Of a stretch of 14,161 nt of DNA, positions 2,247-13,006 are shown one piece after another (the stretch's first letter is position 1; each line of letters starts with the position of its first letter). The notes under the pieces were generated by a model. The model did no database searches, was not told where the DNA came from, and saw only the letters and a list, made by a program, of their open reading frames with translations. The DNA is from a candidate division WOR-3 bacterium (GTDB taxonomy: Bacteria > Hydrothermota > Tepidihabitantia > Tepidihabitantales > DTDR01), in NCBI GenBank assembly GCA_039801885.1, contig JBDRVN010000043.1:1-14161 (forward strand). The letters run 5' to 3'. A program made the translations under genes and the position numbers.

Positions 2247-2987
2247 TTAAGGGTGATTACTTCCATATCTTTTAGGTAAATAATAATCACGAAACCTTTG
2301 TTTACAATTATCACAAAAGAATTGATATGTGTGGGGTTGTAAGTATGGATACATTATACATAACCACCAATCACAATGAGTAGTATCTTGTGGGTCAAAT
2401 ACATGACCTATCTCATGAGCAAGAGCCACTGCTTTTAAGTAGTCTACCTTCATGTTGTTTTGATAGAGAGCATAAATATAACCACCTGCTACTATTGAAA
2501 GAGGTGCCCAATATTCTTCTTTAACACAGAAAGTTATTCCTGCAGCATAACGACGAGTAGCAACATTATAAAGAGAATCCGCTATTAAAACATACAGACA
2601 CCAACTATCACCTTTCAAAAGCCAAGTGTCTCGATAGGTGTAATTTTGTATTAATAATCTTATTGTCTTCCTATTAATAGTATCATAATTTTCTTCAGTA
2701 GTATAGCGAAGTACAGACGGAATCACATTTTCTAAATTATTATTTTCCCCATACTCCTTTATTTCTTTTTTACCATAAATATTATTACTTTCTTTAATCG
2801 CATCAGAAATTATTCCCATAGAAACCCACTTTTCTATAGTATACTTTCTATAATCCACTTCTATACCAATTGTGGTATCCGGAATGTCTGGGATACTTCT
2901 ACTTCCACCGCCTCCGCCACCACCGCCACAATCTACCTTATAAAATAGCATAAATAATACACTTATTATTAGTAATATATATTTCAC
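2247..2987 (-). CDS. Exported/membrane-anchored zinc metalloprotease, archaemetzincin (M54)-like metzincin
   Basis: HEIGH-x8-H-C-x4-C-I-M-x12-C-x2-C motif. Start re-called to GTG 2987 (MKYILLIISVLFMLFYKVDC-G8), which gives a proper N-terminal hydrophobic signal; the track's TTG 3065 extension runs through the promoter. Confidence 0.75.
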   Translation of the reverse strand: MKYILLIISVLFMLFYKVDCGGGGGGGGSRSIPDIPDTTIGIEVDYRKYTIEKWVSMGIISDAIKESNNIYGKKEIKEYGENNNLENVIPSVLRYTTEENYDTINRKTIRLLIQNYTYRDTWLLKGDSWCLYVLIADSLYNVATRRYAAGITFCVKEEYWAPLSIVAGGYIYALYQNNMKVDYLKAVALAHEIGHVFDPQDTTHCDWWLCIMYPYLQPHTYQFFCDNCKQRFRDYYLPKRYGSNHP

Positions 2988-2993
2988 ATAAAA

Positions 2994-3019
2994 ATTATAA
3001 TCATGAAAAAAAAAGTCAA
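2994..3019 (-). promoter_or_regulatory. Sigma70-like promoter of the metalloprotease cluster (likely leaderless transcript)
   Basis: TTGACT (3019-3014), T-tract spacer, TATAAT (2999-2994), 6 nt, GTG; no SD. The spacer to TATAAT is only 14 nt (16 nt to the overlapping TAATTT). Confidence 0.55.
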
Positions 3020-3146
3020 TAAGAAAAATTAATTTTTTAATTTCAATTTCGTCCTTATTTTTCAAGGATTTTTTGAAATTATAAAAATTTATTTAACAAA
3101 ATACAATAAAAGGTATGTGAAATTATGGCAGGGAGAAATTATATTT

Positions 3147-5213
3147 TTATTTAATCTCTAAATAAGGAAAGATTTTTTTAATTTCTTCTTCCGGCAGAAT
3201 TTCATAATGGGAGAAATGCATTGAATAGGTTGCCCGACCAGAAGATAAGGAACGGATAGCAGTAGCATAGCCAAAAGTTTCTTTTAAAGGGACTATACCT
3301 GATAAGACACGATATTCTTTTATTACTTCTATATTTAACACTTTTCCCCTTCTTGCTATTAAATCATTGATAATTACACCAACATATTCTTCCGGTGTTA
3401 GAATTTCTATATTCATTATTGGTTCTAATATAGTGGGATTGGCATTTTTATAGGCTTCATTAAAGGCATTGTTAGCCGCCATTTGAAAAGCAAAATCAGA
3501 GGGGTTTTCTTTGTTATAATTACCATCAAGAATTTCAATTAAGATATTAGTTATTGGATAACCAATTAATAGACCACTATTAGCAACACCTATTAAAGTT
3601 TCTTCTATTTTCGGATAAAAAATTTCTGGAATTTTATCTTTATCAAGATTGAAAATAATATTAATTCCTCTATCTTTGGGTGATAATTTAATAGTTATTT
3701 CTGCTTGGTGTAATTTATTGTCAATTATCCGGGAGAATTTGCCAATACCGATACTCTCTTTTGTAATTGTTTCCCGATAAGATACCTGTGGTTTACCAAT
3801 ATGGCAAGGAACTTTATAGTCTCTTTGTAATCTATCGGTAATAATTTCTAAATGTAACTCACCCATTCCCATAATTATTCTTTGACCAGTTTCTTCATCG
3901 TATTTTATTTTGAATGTTGGGTCTTCAATAGAAAGAAGTTCTAAACTCTCTTGTAACTTTTTCTCATCTTTCCTTGTCTTTGGTTCAATAGTAGCAAATA
4001 TTACCGGCTCAGGAAAAGTTAAAGGTTCAAAAGCAATTGGTGCGTGTAAATCACAAAGAGTATAACCAGTTTTCACATTTTTCAATCCAACAATTGCTCC
4101 AATCTCACCGGCTTTTAACTCTTCTACTTCTTCTTGTTTATTAGCATGCATTAATAATATTTTATTTACTCTTATCTTTTCCATTGTTGGCACAACTAAG
4201 ATTTGTTTACCAATCCTAATCTTTCCGGAATATATTCGGAAATAAGAAAGCAAACCACGATTAAAATCGTTCTGGATTTTAAAAATCAGAGCAGATAAAG
4301 GCTGAGAAATATCGGCTTTTCTTTCTTCTACATTATTATTTTTTGGATGAAAACCAACTACCGGTGGTAGGTCAATTGGTGATGGCAAATAATCAACGAT
4401 TGCATCTAAAAGTGGTTGGATTCCTTTGTTTTTTAAGGCACTACCACATAATACCGGATAGAATTTCAAACTTAAAGTTCCTTTTCTTATTGCCTTTTTT
4501 ATTAAATCAATTTCTATTTCTTCTCCTTTAAGATATTTTTCTAATATCTCTTCATCTTCTTCTGATAAAATTTCTATCATTTTTTCTCTCATTAATTTTG
4601 TTTTCTCTTTATAATCATCCGGTATTGGTAATTTATCATATTTTGCTCCCAAGGTTTCTTCATACCAAATATATAAAACCTGTTCAACCAAATCGATCAC
4701 TCCTTGAAAGTATTCTTCTGCTCCATAAGGAATTTGAATAGGCAAAGGTTTTAAAGATAATCTCTCTTCCATCATTTTTATTACCCTTTCAAAGTCAGAG
4801 CCAATTCTATCAAGTTTATTAACAAAAGCAATCCTGGGAACTTTATATTTATCAGCCTGATGCCATACGGTCTCTGTTTGTGATTCTACTCCACCAACTC
4901 CACAAAAAACAATTACTGCTCCATCTAAAACTTTTAAACATCTTTCTACCTCAATTGTGAAGTCTACATGACCTGGTGTATCAATAATATTAATCTGATG
5001 GTCTTTCCAAAAACAAGTGGTGGCTGCAGAAGTAATGGTTATTCCCCTTTCCTTTTCCTGAATCATCCAGTCCATTGTAGCAGTTCCTTCATCTACTTCA
5101 CCCATTCGATAAATCTTTCCGGTATAATATAAAATCCTCTCGGTCGTTGTTGTCTTACCTGCATCAATATGAGCAGCAATCCCAATATTTCTTATTCTTT
5201 TTATATATTCCAT
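3147..5213 (-). CDS. fusA: Elongation factor G paralogue (stand-alone, divergent domain IV; EF-G2-like)
   Basis: [42 protein letters not shown] and LEPIM motifs. Start re-called to ATG 5213 ([11 protein letters not shown], 688 aa); the track's TTG 5252 is the -35 box. Confidence 0.95.
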
Positions 5214-5224
5214 ATATTTTATCA

Positions 5225-5252
5225 ATTTTAATAAAACCAAGTAATTAGTCAA
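5225..5252 (-). promoter_or_regulatory. Sigma70-like promoter of fusA paralogue
   Basis: TTGACT-16 nt-TAAAAT, then 11 nt to ATG 5213; no SD. Confidence 0.6.
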
Positions 5253-5414
5253 TTTAATTAACTATAAAATATTGTATCAGGAAGTTATCTTTATGTCTAT
5301 ACAAGTATTTGATTTATAAAAACTTATAAATATATTACCATTTTTGCTATTTTGTGAGGGGTTATATTTAGATAGCAATATTCCTACGGATTATTTAAGC
5401 CCTACAAAATTATG

Positions 5415-5510
5415 AAAAATAAGCTTAATATTAAAGTCATTAATAAGGCGAATATTATTAGCATTAATAAAGATATTATTATTCACATTAATAAAATTAT
5501 TATTATTCAT
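5415..5510. repeat. Degenerate 24-nt tandem repeat, 3-4 copies
   Basis: AAAAATAAGCTTAATATTAAAGTC / ATTAATAAGGCGAATATTATTAGC / ATTAATAAAGATATTATTATTCAC / ATTAATAAAATTATTATTATTCAT. Confidence 0.6.
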
Positions 5511-5798
5511 ATAAGGAAGACCTACCCTGTATCATTCTCTCCACGGGAATTTTTCTTCCCTATTAACAACACTTGAATAAAAGGCTCTACAGGTAAAATA
5601 TCGAATTTTATTCTAATTTGCAAATTTTCTATTAAATTAATAACCATTTTAATAATTATAGCAAAAATAAAAGATTTGTAAAGATAAAATTTGTTTCCAA
5701 TTGTAAATTTGTTAATAAAAGAAATCATACCATAATAAGAATGAAGTCTTTTTATTATTAATTTATAACCCTTATCTTAACACATTTACTTTTTTTCG

Positions 5799-5852
5799 TT
5801 GACTTTATAAAAAATATTATTAAAATATTAATGATGTATTCAAAATCGGAGG
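5799..5852 (+). promoter_or_regulatory. Promoter and RBS of the Omp28-like gene
   Basis: TTGACT (5799-5804)-16 nt-TAAAAT (5821-5826); GGAGG at 5848-5852, 5 nt before ATG 5858. Confidence 0.7.
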
Positions 5853-5857
5853 TTATT

Positions 5858-6874
5858 ATGAAAAAATACCTTCCTTTATTATTTACTTTAATTTTTATTT
5901 CTTCTCTCTATTCAGCAGAAAGGGTTGTTGTTGCTGAAGAAGCCTACCAAGAAGGTTGAGGTTCCTGTGCGACAGCCAGCAGTGTGCTGGATCAAGTAGT
6001 CTCAATATATCCAACAAGAATTGCTGCAATTGAAATGCATATCTCTTCGACTTATCCACTTTATTGTGCAGAGGCAAGAAGTAAAATGTATATGTATCCA
6101 CCTCCTTATTATTATAATGGTCAATGGTATTATGTAACTCCTTATATGTGGTACGATGGTAAAAAAGGTGGCACAAGTTATTATAATTGGCAATATCTTT
6201 TGGAACAAAGAATGGGAGTTACTTCTGATTTAAACTTTGAATTTTCCGGTTGGTATAATCCAAATACGAGAAATGGTCATATTGAATTGACAATTACTAA
6301 CGAATCTGCTAATCCAATTACTGGTCGGCTTCAATTTGTTATTACTGAAGATAGTATTTATTACTCAGCACCAAATGGCGATGTTTGGCATAATCATGTC
6401 GCAAGAGATTATCTACCCGACCATAATGGTGAAATAATTACCGTGCCAGCAAATGGTTCTATTTCCCGAAGTAGAGATTTTACTATTTCTACTAATTGGA
6501 ATCCTGATAAATGTAAAATAATTGCCTTTTTACAAGATGATAACCTTCAACCCGATTCAACAAAAGAGGTTTATCAAGGTGGAATGATTAATATTAGGGA
6601 ATTGACTGCTATTAGCGAAGTGACTAATATTTCTCCAAAACTTACTTTTATTTTCAATACCGGTAAATCAAAAATTAAATTAACCTGTGAAAACAAAGGT
6701 GAGTTTGTGCTTCAAATATTTTCTACTGACGGAAAAATTCTTCAGACAATCAAAGATTACTTTTCTGGCAAAGAGAAAGAACTTTCTCTTAATCTGAAAA
6801 CCAAAGGAATTTATTTCTACAAACTAAACTTTTCCGGTAAGGAATACCAAGGAAAACTTATTAATCTACAGTAA
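5858..6874 (+). CDS. Omp28-related thioredoxin-fold exported protein with T9SS-type C-terminal domain; candidate selenoprotein (UxxC, TGA at 5957-5959)
   Basis: MKKYLPLLFTLIFISSLYSA-ERVVVAEEAYQEG-U-GS-C-ATASSVLDQ..., in frame with the track ORF 5984..6874 (338 aa with readthrough). Omp28-like features: RVVxxEE before CxxC, IAAIEMH, TPxxxxDG (cis-Pro loop), ITEDSI, HNHVARD, IIAFLQD. CTD: IFSTDGKIL...GIYFYKLN...GKLINL. Confidence 0.85.
5960..5993 (+). promoter_or_regulatory. Putative bacterial SECIS element
   Basis: CCAGCA-GUG-UGCUGG hairpin (5976-5990) with a G-initiated apical loop 22 nt after the UGA; 20 of 31 nt in 5960-5990 are G/C in an otherwise very AT-rich gene. Confidence 0.65.
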
Positions 6875-6902
6875 TTAATTTTATTTTATTTATTTTATTT
6901 TT

Positions 6903-6937
6903 GGGCGGAGTTCTAAATTCTCCGCCCTTTTATTTTT
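6903..6937 (+). terminator. Rho-independent terminator after the Omp28-like gene
   Basis: GGGCGGAG-9 nt loop-CTCCGCCC followed by TTTTATTTTT. Confidence 0.9.
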
Positions 6938-6946
6938 ATTAAATTA

Positions 6947-6974
6947 TTGACAGATATTTATATTTAGTTATTAT
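6947..6974 (+). promoter_or_regulatory. Sigma70-like promoter of hutU (leaderless)
   Basis: TTGACA-16 nt-TATTAT, 6 nt, ATG 6981; no SD; lies directly after a terminator. Confidence 0.65.
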
Positions 6975-6980
6975 TTAATT

Positions 6981-8678
6981 ATGGGAGCAATTGAAACATT
7001 AAAAGAAAAAAAGATTAAAGCACCGCAGGGAAAAAGTTTATCTTGTAAAGGTTGGCATCAAGAGGCGGCATTAAGAATGCTTTGTAATAACTTAGACCCG
7101 GAAGTTGCCGAAAAGCCAGAAGAATTGATTGTTTATGGTGGTTGTGGAAAGGCAGCAAGAAATTGGGAATGTTTCTATGCGATTGTTGAAGCATTAAAAA
7201 ATTTAGAAAATGATGAAACCCTTTTAATCCAATCAGGAAAACCAGTAGGAATATTTAAAACCTTTCCTTATGCACCAAGAGTTTTGATTGCCAATTCTTT
7301 ATTAGTTCCGGCTTGGGCAACTTGGGATTATTTTAGAAAATTAGAAGCAATGGGACTAATAATGTATGGCCAAATGACCGCAGGTAGTTGGATTTATATT
7401 GGAACACAGGGAATTATTCAAGGAACTTATGAGACCTTTGCTAGTTGTGCCAAAAAACATTTTGGCACTTCTTTAAAAGGAAAATGGGTATTGACTGCGG
7501 GAATGGGCGGAATGTCTGGTGCCCAACCATTAGCAGTAACAATGAACGAAGGAGTAATTTTGGATGTGGAAGTTGACCCAAAAAAGATTGAAAGAAGAGT
7601 AAAACAAGGTTTCTGCGATATGATGGTTTTTGATTTGGATGAAGCATTAAGATTGGTCGATGAAGCAGTAAAAAAGAAAATTCCCCGTTCTATCGGTTTA
7701 GTTGGTAATGCGAGTGATATCCATCCAGAATTAGTAAAAAGGGGAATTATTCCTGATGTTTTAACTGACCAGACATCGGCTCACGATGAGTTAAACGGCT
7801 ATGTTCCGGGAAGGATGAGTTTAGAAGAAGCATTAGAATTAAGAAGAAAAAATCCCGAAGAATATATTAAAAGAAGTTATGAATCAATGGCAAGGCAAAT
7901 GGAAGCAATGCTTGAAATGCAAAAGAAAGGTGCGATTGCTTTTGATTACGGAAATAATATCCGTGGTCAAGCCTATAAAGGCGGAGTAAAAGAGGCTTTT
8001 AACATTCCTGGTTTTGTTTTAGAATATATTAGACCGCTCTTCTGCGAAGGAAGAGGTCCTTTTAGATGGGTCGCTTTATCAGGAAATAAACAAGATATCT
8101 ATCTTACTGATAAGCTTGTTTTGGAATTATTCAAAGATAATGAAATCTTAATTCGCTGGATTAAACTTGCCGAAGAAAAAATACCTTTCCAAGGTTTGCC
8201 AGCAAGAATCTGTTGGCTTGGCTATGGAGAGAGAGCAAGATTTGGATTAGAGATTAATAAATTAGTAAGAGATGGAAAGATTGAAGCACCAATTGTTATT
8301 GGCAGAGACCATTTAGATACTGGTTCAGTGGCTTCACCAAATAGAGAGACAGAAAAAATGAAAGATGGTTCAGATGCAATTGCTGACTGGCCTATTCTTA
8401 ATGCTTTATTAAATGCGGTATCAGGTGCTTCTTGGGTATCGGTTCATCATGGTGGCGGAGTTGGCATTGGTTATTCAATTCACGCGGGACAAGTTATTGT
8501 TGCTGACGGAACAAAAGAAATGGACGAAAGATTAGAAAGGGTATTAACCAATGACCCAGGAATTGGTATTGTTCGTCACGCTGATGCTGGATATGAAAAA
8601 GCCATTGAAGTTGCCCAAAAATATAATATCAAAATTCCAATGTTAAATTTTCAAAAAGAAGAGAAGAAGAGAAAATAA
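6981..8678 (+). CDS. hutU: Urocanate hydratase
   Basis: 565 aa with hallmark motifs [72 protein letters not shown]. Confidence 0.98.
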
Positions 8679-9990: not shown

Positions 9991-11334
9991 TTATTTAACA
10001 ACAATAAACTTTCTTTTTTCCTTATCAATTTTAACTACATAAATTCCTTTCTTTATTTTTCTTAAAGAAATCTTATCTCTTCTCTTTCTTAATACTAATT
10101 TTCCTGAAACATCATAAATTTCAATTTCCTCAAAATTTTTTAAAAGAGCCATATCCAAAAATGATTTTCTTATTCCCTGGGAAGTATCTATTTTATTCTT
10201 TTTGTATCCCTTTTCTTCTATAGCACTCATTGTGTCTCTTATTACGAAAAGAGAAGAATCTCGGGAATCTATTATATAAATTTGACGGGTATAAGGATTG
10301 CCAGTTATTCCGGGAGCTCCTTTTCCAAATCTTAACTGTGATATTATTGAATCATTCCGACAGTCTAAAACATAGAGAATATTATAACTATTTTTATTTT
10401 CATACCAGGAAAGAATATATAATCGGTTGCTCCATTCAGCAAAATATGTAGCAATAAAATCGGCATCGATAATTTCTATATTTTTTATTATTGAATCGGT
10501 CTCACAATCTATTATTTCTATGCAATAATTAGATGGTGAAAAACTAGGCCAATAGATTTTATTTTCATTTTTATTATAAATAATCGGTACCTCATCATTC
10601 CAGTATAAAGTGTCAAATATTTTAATTAATGTATCTCCACGGGTGCATATTACTGCTGATTTTGGTCCACCTCCTAACCACTCAGGCCCAACATATAATT
10701 TTCTGTAAAAAGAATTGTAACAAGCATTACCTGCGATTAATGGAAGGGATATTGTTTTAATCAGCGAATCACTTTCACAATCTATAACTCCCATAACATT
10801 AGCATACGCACACCCACAATAAACTTTATTACCAATTGAATCCCAACAAGTAAAATGAGAAAACCAATATTGGGGGTGGTTTATTATTTTAATTAATGAG
10901 TCAGTCTCACAATCTATTACACCAACATTTAATCCATCAACAGCATAAATTTTATCATTCATTGAATTATAACACTGTGTGGTTGGCCCACAGCTAACAA
11001 AATTAATCCATTTTATTATTGTATCTTTTTTGGTATCAATAACTAATATACTCTCAGGATTAGGATTAAAACCAAAATATATTTTATCTCTTTTTGGATT
11101 ATAGGTTCCATATGCAAAACTTGTTGGATAGTGGTGTGGAAGAGGAATAACCTTTTTTATTTCATAAGTTGAACAATCTACAACAAAAAATTGAGAACTG
11201 AATAAAACCTTTATATAAAGTTTATTTTCTTTGGAAATATAAAATAAACTTAATGGCCAATCATTAAGACGAACAACTGTATCAATTATTTGAGGAAAAA
11301 TAAAAAATGGAAAAAGGAAAATAAAATATCTCAT
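9991..11334 (-). CDS. Secreted YVTN/YncE-family beta-propeller protein with T9SS-type C-terminal domain
   Basis: About 7 repeats of YNxxxxKIY...VIDCETDSLIKxI; short signal-like N-terminus; C-terminal IEIYDVSGKLV...GIYVVKI...KFIVVK. Confidence 0.85.
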   Translation of the reverse strand: MRYFIFLFPFFIFPQIIDTVVRLNDWPLSLFYISKENKLYIKVLFSSQFFVVDCSTYEIKKVIPLPHHYPTSFAYGTYNPKRDKIYFGFNPNPESILVIDTKKDTIIKWINFVSCGPTTQCYNSMNDKIYAVDGLNVGVIDCETDSLIKIINHPQYWFSHFTCWDSIGNKVYCGCAYANVMGVIDCESDSLIKTISLPLIAGNACYNSFYRKLYVGPEWLGGGPKSAVICTRGDTLIKIFDTLYWNDEVPIIYNKNENKIYWPSFSPSNYCIEIIDCETDSIIKNIEIIDADFIATYFAEWSNRLYILSWYENKNSYNILYVLDCRNDSIISQLRFGKGAPGITGNPYTRQIYIIDSRDSSLFVIRDTMSAIEEKGYKKNKIDTSQGIRKSFLDMALLKNFEEIEIYDVSGKLVLRKRRDKISLRKIKKGIYVVKIDKEKRKFIVVK

Positions 11335-11377: not shown

Positions 11378-13006
11378 TTAGTTAATTATTACTTTGATCT
11401 TTTCTTGCTTTTCTTTCAAATTAATCATAATAAAATAAACACCGGAAGAAACGTTTCTTCCTTTTTCATTCTTTTTATTCCATATTAATTGGTGTTCTCC
11501 TTTTTCCATCTTCCCTTTAAAAATTGATTTCACTTTTTCACCATAAAAATTATAAACTGAGATTTCTACGTAAGATGGGATAGAAAGAAGATAAGAAATT
11601 TTAACACCTTTTTTATCTAAGAAGAATTTTTTCTTAATAGCTAAAATTGTATTTTGTAATTGCGAACTTTCGCTACCGCTTTCAATAGAGTCATCTTCTT
11701 CAAACCCCGGAGAAGGATTTACATAAAAACTGTTTCTATCTCTACCAATAATTAAATAAGCATCCTTATTAATTGGGTCAAAAGTAATAGAGGCTCCTGT
11801 ATCTAATATAGCTGGTAATTGGTCGCTATGCATAATCCATCTGCCAGCAGGTGCTCCCGGATAACGTGTCTTATATATATAATGATGGTTCCGCGAATTA
11901 CTGTGTCCAAATACTGCAAGAAGTTTTCGATAATATCCTGGTCCATCCTGATAACAAGATGTAAGTGAAGAACCAGCATTTTGTCTTAAAGGAGAAGTTG
12001 CGAGCGGTAAGAGCCTCCAATAATTGGAATGTATTGAGTAGCAATAAAAATTTTCTCTACCACCTCCTATAAGACAGTAAACACTTTCTGCTTTTGCCTC
12101 TTCTCCTTCTTTATGATAAGCAATTGAAGCACCTACTTTAACAGACTCAGGAATATCTGTTTTTCTAAGCCAATTATAATCAATAGTAAATTTTCTTATT
12201 TCGCTCCATAAAGAGTTGGATGAGCGGGTTCGCCAATAATAAATTCCTGGCGTAAAAATTATATTGGATGAAAAAATATTTTTATCACTTATAATATCTA
12301 TTATTGGAGAAGAAAAATCCAAATTATCATCTACTTGAAGTTGATAATAAGAAGCCATTGTGTCTCTTTTCCAACTGAATAATATTTCTATTGCATCTAA
12401 TATTGTATCGTTTGGTGGGAAAATGTCATCGCAAACCTGTTGAGCAAGTAATTTTTTAAAAGGAAGACAGTAAAACTCATTTTCTATTGCAAGATATAAC
12501 TCTCCAACAAGAACACTAATTATTATATTAGGAGGCGGTGGAGAAGAAGGTTCTACTGGTCTAAAGGTAATTCCTACAGCAGGATTACCTATCGGTATTT
12601 CTCTAGGAAGTAAGATCCCTCGCGACCATCTTCCGTTACAACCTGTATCATAAGTAAACGAATAAAGAAAAAGTGAATCTGGAAAATTTAAAAGTTGTAA
12701 AACAACGAATATTTTTTCAAAATCCAATCCACCTTTTCCATAAGTTATTGCATCTCCACAATAAATTTCATAACGGGATACTGGAAGAAAAGATAATTCC
12801 TGCCAATGTTCCCTTTTAATATTGTAAGCATAAAAATAGTCCCAATATCTTCCGCATATTAAAAAAATATATCCTCTACCATAAGTAACACCTGCGCCAG
12901 CCCTCGCAGTAGTAGGATAGGGAATAGGTGGCAAAGGTATCCAGTCTCCCAATAAAGTGGAAAAAAGAATTAATGAAATACATATTATTAAAAATATATT
13001 TTTCAT
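11378..13006 (-). CDS. Secreted Kelch-like repeat protein with internal Fn3/Ig-like domain and FlgD-Ig/T9SS C-terminal domain
   Basis: AGGAGG SD; signal peptide; Kelch-like blades (GAGVTY..IFLICG..FYAYNIKREHWQEL; GASIAY..VYCLIGGG..FYCYSIHSNYW); FSW...YQLQVDDNLDFSSP...YYWRTR...WSEIRKFTI; C-terminal VYNFYGEKVK...GEHQLIWN...GRNVSSGVYF. Confidence 0.85.
   Translation of the reverse strand: MKNIFLIICISLILFSTLLGDWIPLPPIPYPTTARAGAGVTYGRGYIFLICGRYWDYFYAYNIKREHWQELSFLPVSRYEIYCGDAITYGKGGLDFEKIFVVLQLLNFPDSLFLYSFTYDTGCNGRWSRGILLPREIPIGNPAVGITFRPVEPSSPPPPNIIISVLVGELYLAIENEFYCLPFKKLLAQQVCDDIFPPNDTILDAIEILFSWKRDTMASYYQLQVDDNLDFSSPIIDIISDKNIFSSNIIFTPGIYYWRTRSSNSLWSEIRKFTIDYNWLRKTDIPESVKVGASIAYHKEGEEAKAESVYCLIGGGRENFYCYSIHSNYWRLLPLATSPLRQNAGSSLTSCYQDGPGYYRKLLAVFGHSNSRNHHYIYKTRYPGAPAGRWIMHSDQLPAILDTGASITFDPINKDAYLIIGRDRNSFYVNPSPGFEEDDSIESGSESSQLQNTILAIKKKFFLDKKGVKISYLLSIPSYVEISVYNFYGEKVKSIFKGKMEKGEHQLIWNKKNEKGRNVSSGVYFIMINLKEKQEKIKVIIN

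Follow-up and report, generated by a model that had tools for sequence, protein, structure and literature searches.

An in-frame TGA almost certainly places selenocysteine (Sec) at the catalytic site of a thioredoxin-like, exported enzyme. The gene that carries it is genuine and occurs widely among bacteria of an uncultured group, candidate division WOR-3. We analyzed it in a 14,161-nucleotide stretch of DNA, hereafter the window, to which all positions refer unless a contig or locus is named. As a stand-alone gene, it probably specifies an exported thiol/disulfide oxidoreductase that is built like HBP35 of P. gingivalis, with Sec replacing the first Cys of CxxC and with routing by a pathway like the secretion system of type IX (T9SS).

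Reading frame and gene organization

The reading frame extends from ATG 5858 to TAA 6872–6874 and yields 338 amino acids with one TGA read through. This TGA, the only one in frame, is codon 34 at 5957–5959, and all 304 codons after it are open. The surrounding motif is ERVVVAEEAYQEG-U-GS-C, giving the active site UGSC, and its second Cys (Cys37) is encoded at 5966–5968. The features of the gene and its flanks are summarized in Table 1.

Table 1 Features of the Omp28-type selenoprotein gene and its flanks in the window.
Feature	Position	Strand	Evidence
sigma70-like promoter match, TTGACT-16-TAAAAT	5799..5826	+	10/12 matches; weak evidence
Shine-Dalgarno sequence GGAGG	5848..5852	+	5 nt before ATG; most orthologues listed have a GGAG-type site ahead of the corresponding ATG
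Full gene, HBP35/Omp28-type selenoprotein	5858..6874	+	Reading frame, orthologues, predicted structure, fold matches
Predicted cleavable signal peptide, about aa 1–20	5858..5917	+	Read from sequence; similar N-termini in orthologues
Thioredoxin-type domain, aa 21 to about 122	5918..6223	+	Model; fold matches to 5Y1A and 2AXO
In-frame UGA, almost certainly read as selenocysteine 34	5957..5959	+	UxxC; 30/30 orthologue loci; Sec machinery present
Bacterial SECIS hairpin, CCAGC-AGUGU-GCUGG	5976..5990	+	Pairing across orthologues; consensus fit
T94-P95, candidate thioredoxin cis-proline loop	6137..6142	+	Pro in at least 90% of 51 rows; precedes a strand in the model
Ig-like Omp28 domain with conserved W-H-N-H-V-x-R	6224..6607	+	PF11551; superposition with 2R2C; H178 at 6389
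Probable T9SS type A C-terminal sorting domain	6638..6871	+	Over TIGR04183 cut-off, under PF18962 cut-off; structural matches to T9SS C-terminal domains
G+C-rich hairpin followed by U-rich run, likely intrinsic terminator	6903..6927	+	8 bp stem, 9 nt loop, −16.6 kcal/mol
Flank: elongation factor G-like (fusA-like) gene, divergent	3147..5252	−	Profile matches; adjoins hutU in G003
Flank: urocanate hydratase gene hutU	6981..8678	+	Own promoter-like site; profile matches

The ribosome-binding site, start codon, single TGA, intact downstream codons and protein length given by the original prediction were all confirmed in the sequence. It had also placed the start of the annotated ORF downstream of the true start, and we found the same: under translation table 11 the ORF begins at GTG 5984 and has 296 aa, and this GTG falls inside the SECIS hairpin. 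The signal peptide of 20 residues that it proposed is likewise predicted here, with a basic N-terminus, a hydrophobic core and no lipobox Cys. Its promoter was upheld in part. The TTGACT/TAAAAT site is present, but the region contains 16 sites of that quality, and shuffled sequences give 12.3 ± 3.6; because there is no excess over the shuffles, the site is no evidence by itself. The likely terminator was not listed by the terminator scan, which allowed loops of up to 8 nt. A search of Rfam over 5200–7100 gave seven matches, none at the gathering score.

The neighbourhood with the fusA-like gene and hutU is kept within the genus only, and a functional link of the selenoprotein gene to either neighbour was rejected on this ground. 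Elsewhere in the window, two genes on the minus strand (9991–11334 and 11378–13006) encode exported proteins whose tails are T9SS-like or of the FlgD-Ig type; the protein of the first gene is a beta-propeller. An ORF at 2247–3065, also on the minus strand, contains a poly-Gly run and an HExxH motif and gave a weak archaemetzincin match (E 0.009).

SECIS hairpin downstream of the UGA

The loop of the hairpin begins 21 nt after the UGA, its second base is G, and the folding energy is −8.4 kcal/mol. The hairpin lies within 16–37 nt downstream of the UGA, has an apical G and is conserved with covariation; it agrees with the bacterial SECIS consensus given in section 5 of PMC13188914 (accessible part). 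Compared with the bacterial SelB/SECIS model of the same source, it shares a loop of 3–5 nt, a stem of 5–6 bp, a spacing of 21–22 nt and a G within the first two loop positions. We found no notable difference from this model, and the element is an ordinary bacterial SECIS.

Among 29 distinct orthologue rows, 89.7% of 174 cells were paired, compared with 9–41% for slid controls; the hairpin was drawn from the same related rows that were used for counting, and the controls thus lean its way. One stem pair covaries, being C-G in 18 rows, U-A in 10 and U-G in one. RNAfold preferred other folds for several orthologues. The Ser codon within the stem is AGY in 30/30 loci and the codon before it ends in C in 29/30, and the stem has lost synonymous freedom.

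Conservation and co-occurrence with sel genes

A match to the gene was detected in 37 of the 41 genomes of the order. We compared 30 orthologue loci, which are the best matches of 30 genomes including the focal one (G000), the others having 36–95% identity; TGA at codon 34 and Cys at position 37 (+3) were present in all 30. In a second collection of 31 loci, of which nine repeat genomes of the first set and one is cut before the Sec column, TGA was found in 36 of 37 scored matches, and the exception is a distant paralogue with TGC. Across 201 genomes of the phylum, with up to five matches per genome, 79 best matches each contained exactly one TGA, the Sec column being confirmed in the fetched loci rather than in all 79. 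All 13 further domains checked in 11 fetched regions read UxxC. The same column is CxxC in paralogues and distant homologues. Thus, as originally proposed, the TGA falls on the position of the redox Cys.

A database homologue with 83% identity is labelled candidate division WOR-3. The Sec-bearing N-terminus is absent from all 120 database homologues listed, among 160 found. Restoring it corrects a systematic annotation error, in which a multi-copy family is recorded without its signal peptide and active site in every one of these 120 records. In two members of the focal clade (P0141 and P0177) the first motif position is occupied by a residue other than Sec or Cys, and the second Cys is kept; the UxxC motif can therefore be lost.

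selA was found in 50 of the 51 genomes that have a TGA-bearing match, and was not found in 18 of the 20 genomes having stop-free matches only; these counts are given without a statistic, since related genomes are not independent. The exception, G172 (96% complete, 300 contigs), has the TGA gene and no selA match. G031 (76% complete) also has the TGA gene and gave no sel matches. Conversely, seven genomes (G001, G007, G013, G017, G018, G032 and G037) contain selA and no orthologue. G003, which belongs to the same genus and is 98% complete, is without selA, selB and tRNA-Sec. In this genome the fusA-like gene and hutU are about 110 bp apart with the selenoprotein gene absent, and the same gap in the window is about 1670 bp. 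About 550 bp of AT-rich intergenic DNA 5' of the gene (5253–5800) is likewise missing from G003. G035 also has neither the gene nor sel genes.

In some genomes the gene lies beside the Sec genes themselves: it is divergent from tRNA-Sec in G019, G021 and G029, and directly upstream of selA-selB in G170. Clusters of exported candidate selenoprotein genes by tRNA-Sec or selA-selB were observed at G029:C151:4715-8819, G021:C59:75237-85479 and G170:C10:32764-36500.

Decoding of the TGA codon

Profile searches of the focal genome, which is 91% complete, identified selA (564.8 bits), selB (366.8 bits) and selD (320 bits), all above their cut-offs, and a tRNA-Sec(UCA) was found with 72.7 bits. The selD gene itself contains one TGA, with a hairpin like that of the Omp28-type gene. 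On this genomic evidence, we hold it as nearly certain that SelB with Sec-tRNA would bind the hairpin at 5976–5990 and recode UGA34.

Two contigs from RNA libraries span 5957–5959 and show no change at the TGA; such contigs indicate presence, and neither expression level nor strand. The gene was not covered in run X5, and run X1 was left out of the count. A single contig of run X16 (5924–6517) has a joint that jumps back 594 bases, which is probably an artefact of assembly or library preparation.

Two other readings of the codon were weighed. The TGA might be a real stop, in a pseudogene or after a recent nonsense mutation or assembly error, in which case an internal start could yield no more than a truncated product. 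Gene callers treat it as a stop in all 120 homologues listed, and HBP35 has internal starts and makes shorter cytoplasmic forms. However, the TGA is identical across five families at 36–95% identity, the downstream hairpin covaries, signal peptides are intact, the RNA-library contigs carry the TGA, and absence of the Sec genes goes with absence of this gene. The conservation in 30/30 loci and the unchanged contigs led us to reject both an assembly error and a nonsense mutation of recent date. A true stop is very improbable and, because the TGA is conserved, cannot be the only reading; some truncated protein may be made as a minor form when selenium is low. The other reading, reassignment of TGA to Trp or Gly throughout the genome, has a negligible probability. 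TGA ends 257 of the 1006 open frames of at least 200 codons; under table 11, these frames account for 83% of the genome. The stop at 1339–1341 on the minus strand of the window is also TGA. The only tRNA-Trp found reads CCA, tRNA-Sec is the sole tRNA with a UCA anticodon, and the motif column is Cys, not Trp or Gly, in paralogues. Global recoding is refuted by the stops and the tRNAs.

Site-specific decoding as Sec is thus the reading that we retain, in agreement with the original prediction. That prediction had named three findings that would speak against it, and the opposite was observed for each: selA, selB, selD and tRNA-Sec(UCA) are present, the reads assembled from RNA libraries keep the TGA, and close orthologues have TGA rather than Cys, so that the codon is not unique to one strain.

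Predicted fold and catalytic role

The mature chain was modelled with Cys in place of Sec from a 51-row alignment (pLDDT 90.9). In the model, the motif lies in the loop after the first strand of a thioredoxin-type domain and C37 opens the first helix; the predicted structure therefore places UxxC at the start of a helix, as had been anticipated. The best structural match in both searches was HBP35 of P. gingivalis (5Y1A; Foldseek E 4.3e-14). The superposition on 5Y1A gave Z 24.1 and rmsd 12.5 over 281 aligned residues with 12% identity, the domains being oriented differently. The next match was 2AXO (Z 19.4). The middle domain superposed on Omp28 (2R2C) with Z 9.4 and rmsd 2.0 over 104 residues, and the tail matched the T9SS C-terminal domains 8GLK, 8GL6, 8GL8 and 8QB1 with Z 8.1–9.0. 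At the sequence level, the PF11551 match (64 bits) passed the gathering cut-off of 34.9. A single-sequence search of the PDB gave no matches, and a profile search gave weak matches to Omp28 and C-terminal domains only.

From the fold and the activity of HBP35, it is likely that the U34 selenolate would attack disulfides of envelope or surface proteins, that C37 would resolve the mixed bond, and that the selenenylsulfide would then be re-reduced by some donor. HBP35 has Cys-dependent thioredoxin activity and binds hemin (PMC2907840, accessible part).

Export and sorting tail

Export across the inner membrane is well supported; judging from its sequence, the signal peptide would very likely take the chain across this membrane. 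Beyond it, the tail would route the protein through a T9SS-like pathway to the cell surface, where the protein would lose the tail and become anchored, following what has been shown for HBP35; we consider this course, and with it surface display, somewhat more probable than the alternatives. The T9SS-type tail proposed originally scored over the cut-off of TIGR04183 (26.4 bits; cut-off 23) but under that of Pfam PF18962 (24.4 bits; cut-off 27). Similarly, the part of the original prediction that concerned secretion held for export, but T9SS translocon and motor genes were not found in our searches and surface display is a deduction.

The focal genome contains 56 matches to T9SS tails, 54 of them above the cut-off, and seven PorV-family matches, three of them above it. 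PorU-like genes scored 260.7 and 256 bits against a cut-off of 420, and one lies directly before a PorV-family gene (G000:C8:2039-9397). For SprA, the search of this genome returned a 26-bit match only. The 989-aa ORF under this match (G000:C13:9922-12888) has no NCBIfam or Pfam match and is a candidate divergent translocon part. SprA_N, GldM and GldN were not found in the 91%-complete genome; the control genomes were silent too, so that this does not show absence.

Two other views of the protein accept the Sec codon and differ in place or task. It may be a true selenoprotein oxidoreductase that stays in the periplasm, its tail being only an Ig-like module or being handled by an incomplete T9SS-like system. 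The lack of a convincing SprA, GldM or GldN in the focal genome, the sub-threshold PorU-like genes and the marginal tail scores favour this, as does the fact that we found no paper on T9SS in WOR-3 in a literature search without most subscription journals. We nevertheless regard it as rather unlikely, since 54 tails exceed the cut-off, PorV-family genes and a PorU-like/PorV pair exist, the tail superposes on those of T9SS cargo, and the same architecture is surface-displayed in HBP35 (PMC3120885, accessible part). Alternatively, the main job might be binding of a ligand such as haem or a metal by the H-N-H-V of the Ig-like domain, and UxxC would then adjust the redox state of that ligand or of a partner. 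H178, N179, V181 and R183 are invariant across the 51 aligned rows; according to the available text of PMC2907840, hemin binding by the C-terminal part of HBP35 does not depend on CxxC, and the authors proposed that this part contains an H-x-H pair. However, no haem-uptake neighbourhood recurs in the 61 loci clustered, and the retained Sec and SECIS argue for catalysis at UxxC. Ligand binding as the main function seems distinctly improbable.

Relationship to known families

The original prediction had raised possible novelty for Omp28 as a selenoprotein family. This does not hold: an Omp28-related UxxC selenoprotein family, GOS_C, had already been proposed in 2008 on the basis of 74 marine reads (PMC2398784, accessible part) and corresponds to NCBIfam NF045500, 'Omp28-related selenoprotein', with UxxC (Table 1 of PMC13188914, a 2026 review, accessible part). 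The core idea is already in print and in NCBIfam; the new elements are a separate WOR-3 subfamily and its HBP35-like architecture. Because the core idea has been published, a specialist would find the result solid rather than surprising.

The focal protein shares with GOS_C/NF045500 a thioredoxin-like fold, one Sec in UxxC, a downstream SECIS and an Omp28-related domain. Two entries in the supplement of PMC2398784, as far as accessible, start with a signal-peptide-like stretch, and the first of them has the same motif spacing, RVV-x-x-ED-x5-U-x-x-C. The motif differs, being EAYQEG-U-GSC in the focal protein and DFTGLN-U-PYC in GOS_C, and so does the source, WOR-3 as opposed to marine reads. 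Against NF045500 the focal protein scored 61.5 bits and did not reach the cut-off of 200. None of the 41 genomes of the order has a match that exceeds this threshold, and the scores of Cys paralogues, reaching 80.8 bits, are above that of the focal protein. Because of these scores, the protein falls outside the NF045500 model; as judged by sequence, it works like GOS_C yet apparently belongs to a separate WOR-3 clade.

With HBP35 (5Y1A) the protein shares the signal peptide, thioredoxin domain, Ig-like domain and T9SS tail; HBP35 is secreted by the T9SS (PMC3120885, accessible part). It differs in having UxxC instead of CxxC, and the two show 12–14% identity with no sequence-level match. Hemin binding, LPS attachment and internal starts are features on the HBP35 side. 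The Omp28 outer membrane lipoprotein family (NF033782, PF11551, 2R2C) has in common with it the PF11551 match and the Ig-like domain (rmsd 2.0). In contrast, the focal protein scored 63.2 bits against NF033782 (cut-off 150), has no lipobox, and would carry Sec in addition to a T9SS-type tail.

We constructed a quick tree of 116 rows and a careful tree of 41 rows, both unrooted and with GOS_C sequences left out. The focal clade had a support of 100 and stood apart from two other WOR-3 Sec groups, one of lipoproteins and one a pair nested among Cys proteins. A single clade for all WOR-3 Sec forms was rejected by the AU test (p 4e-5), performed on 41 of the 116 rows chosen by the analyst and unrooted, so that gains and losses are indistinguishable. 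The nested pair, L060 (G033) and L061 (G039), are Omp28-type UPYC proteins of about 600 aa among Cys paralogues; either Cys was replaced by Sec recently, or Sec is ancestral and was kept.

Our literature search, with most subscription journals outside its reach, gave no relevant paper that connects Omp28, WOR-3 or type IX secretion to selenoproteins. The main texts of BSepDB and deep-Sep do not contain the words 'Omp28', 'WOR-3' and 'T9SS'. The present result adds to the Omp28-type selenoproteins of marine reads a separate WOR-3 subfamily that has a secretion tail. The tie to HBP35, a biochemically studied Cys counterpart, makes a direct comparison of Sec and Cys outside the cytoplasm possible.

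Linked candidate selenoproteins

A scan of the focal genome for TGA followed by a hairpin gave nine candidates, of which four were convincing: selD, the focal gene, a lipoprotein gene on contig C29 and a gene for a 746-aa protein on contig C1. The C1 protein (G000:C1:24999-27239, plus strand; L111:1000-3240) is predicted to be exported. It has G-C-U-A-G-H-C within a CBM-like jelly-roll domain (fold match Z 15.4, rmsd 2.1, 139 aligned) and a T9SS-like tail; its Sec domain has no Pfam or NCBIfam match. All 28 loci of its family that cover the site, among 30, have TGA and a covarying hairpin; the TGA is in the aligned column in 15 of them and within four codons of it in 13.

A C1-type gene lies directly downstream of the Omp28-type gene in 9/9 gene-bearing genomes of family f5 and in eight of the 31 loci of the second collection, two of which are repeats. 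The adjacency was found in none of the 23 loci of the other four families and is absent in the focal genome. A partnership of the Omp28-type and CBM-fold proteins is our hypothesis from these gene orders. The association with sel genes and with another exported candidate selenoprotein suggests that some of this lineage's selenium is used for redox chemistry in the envelope or at the surface. A more speculative picture is a selenium redox module at the WOR-3 surface. The UxxC enzyme would serve in it as dedicated reductant or isomerase for the CBM-like selenoprotein, which is apparently uncatalogued and whose gene, where the two adjoin, sometimes lies by tRNA-Sec or selAB. Sec would have arisen on three or more occasions at this Omp28 column within WOR-3, separately from the marine GOS_C, and selenoenzymes would leave the cell through a type IX-like system in bacteria for which the papers searched describe none. 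We think this picture unlikely to be correct as a whole.

The C29 gene (L057:1560-2288, plus strand) encodes a second Omp28-type candidate selenoprotein of the focal genome, a lipoprotein with UPFC and a hairpin. It sits between genes for a NifS-like cysteine desulfurase and a ResA/TlpA-like redoxin, possibly forming an operon for electron supply.
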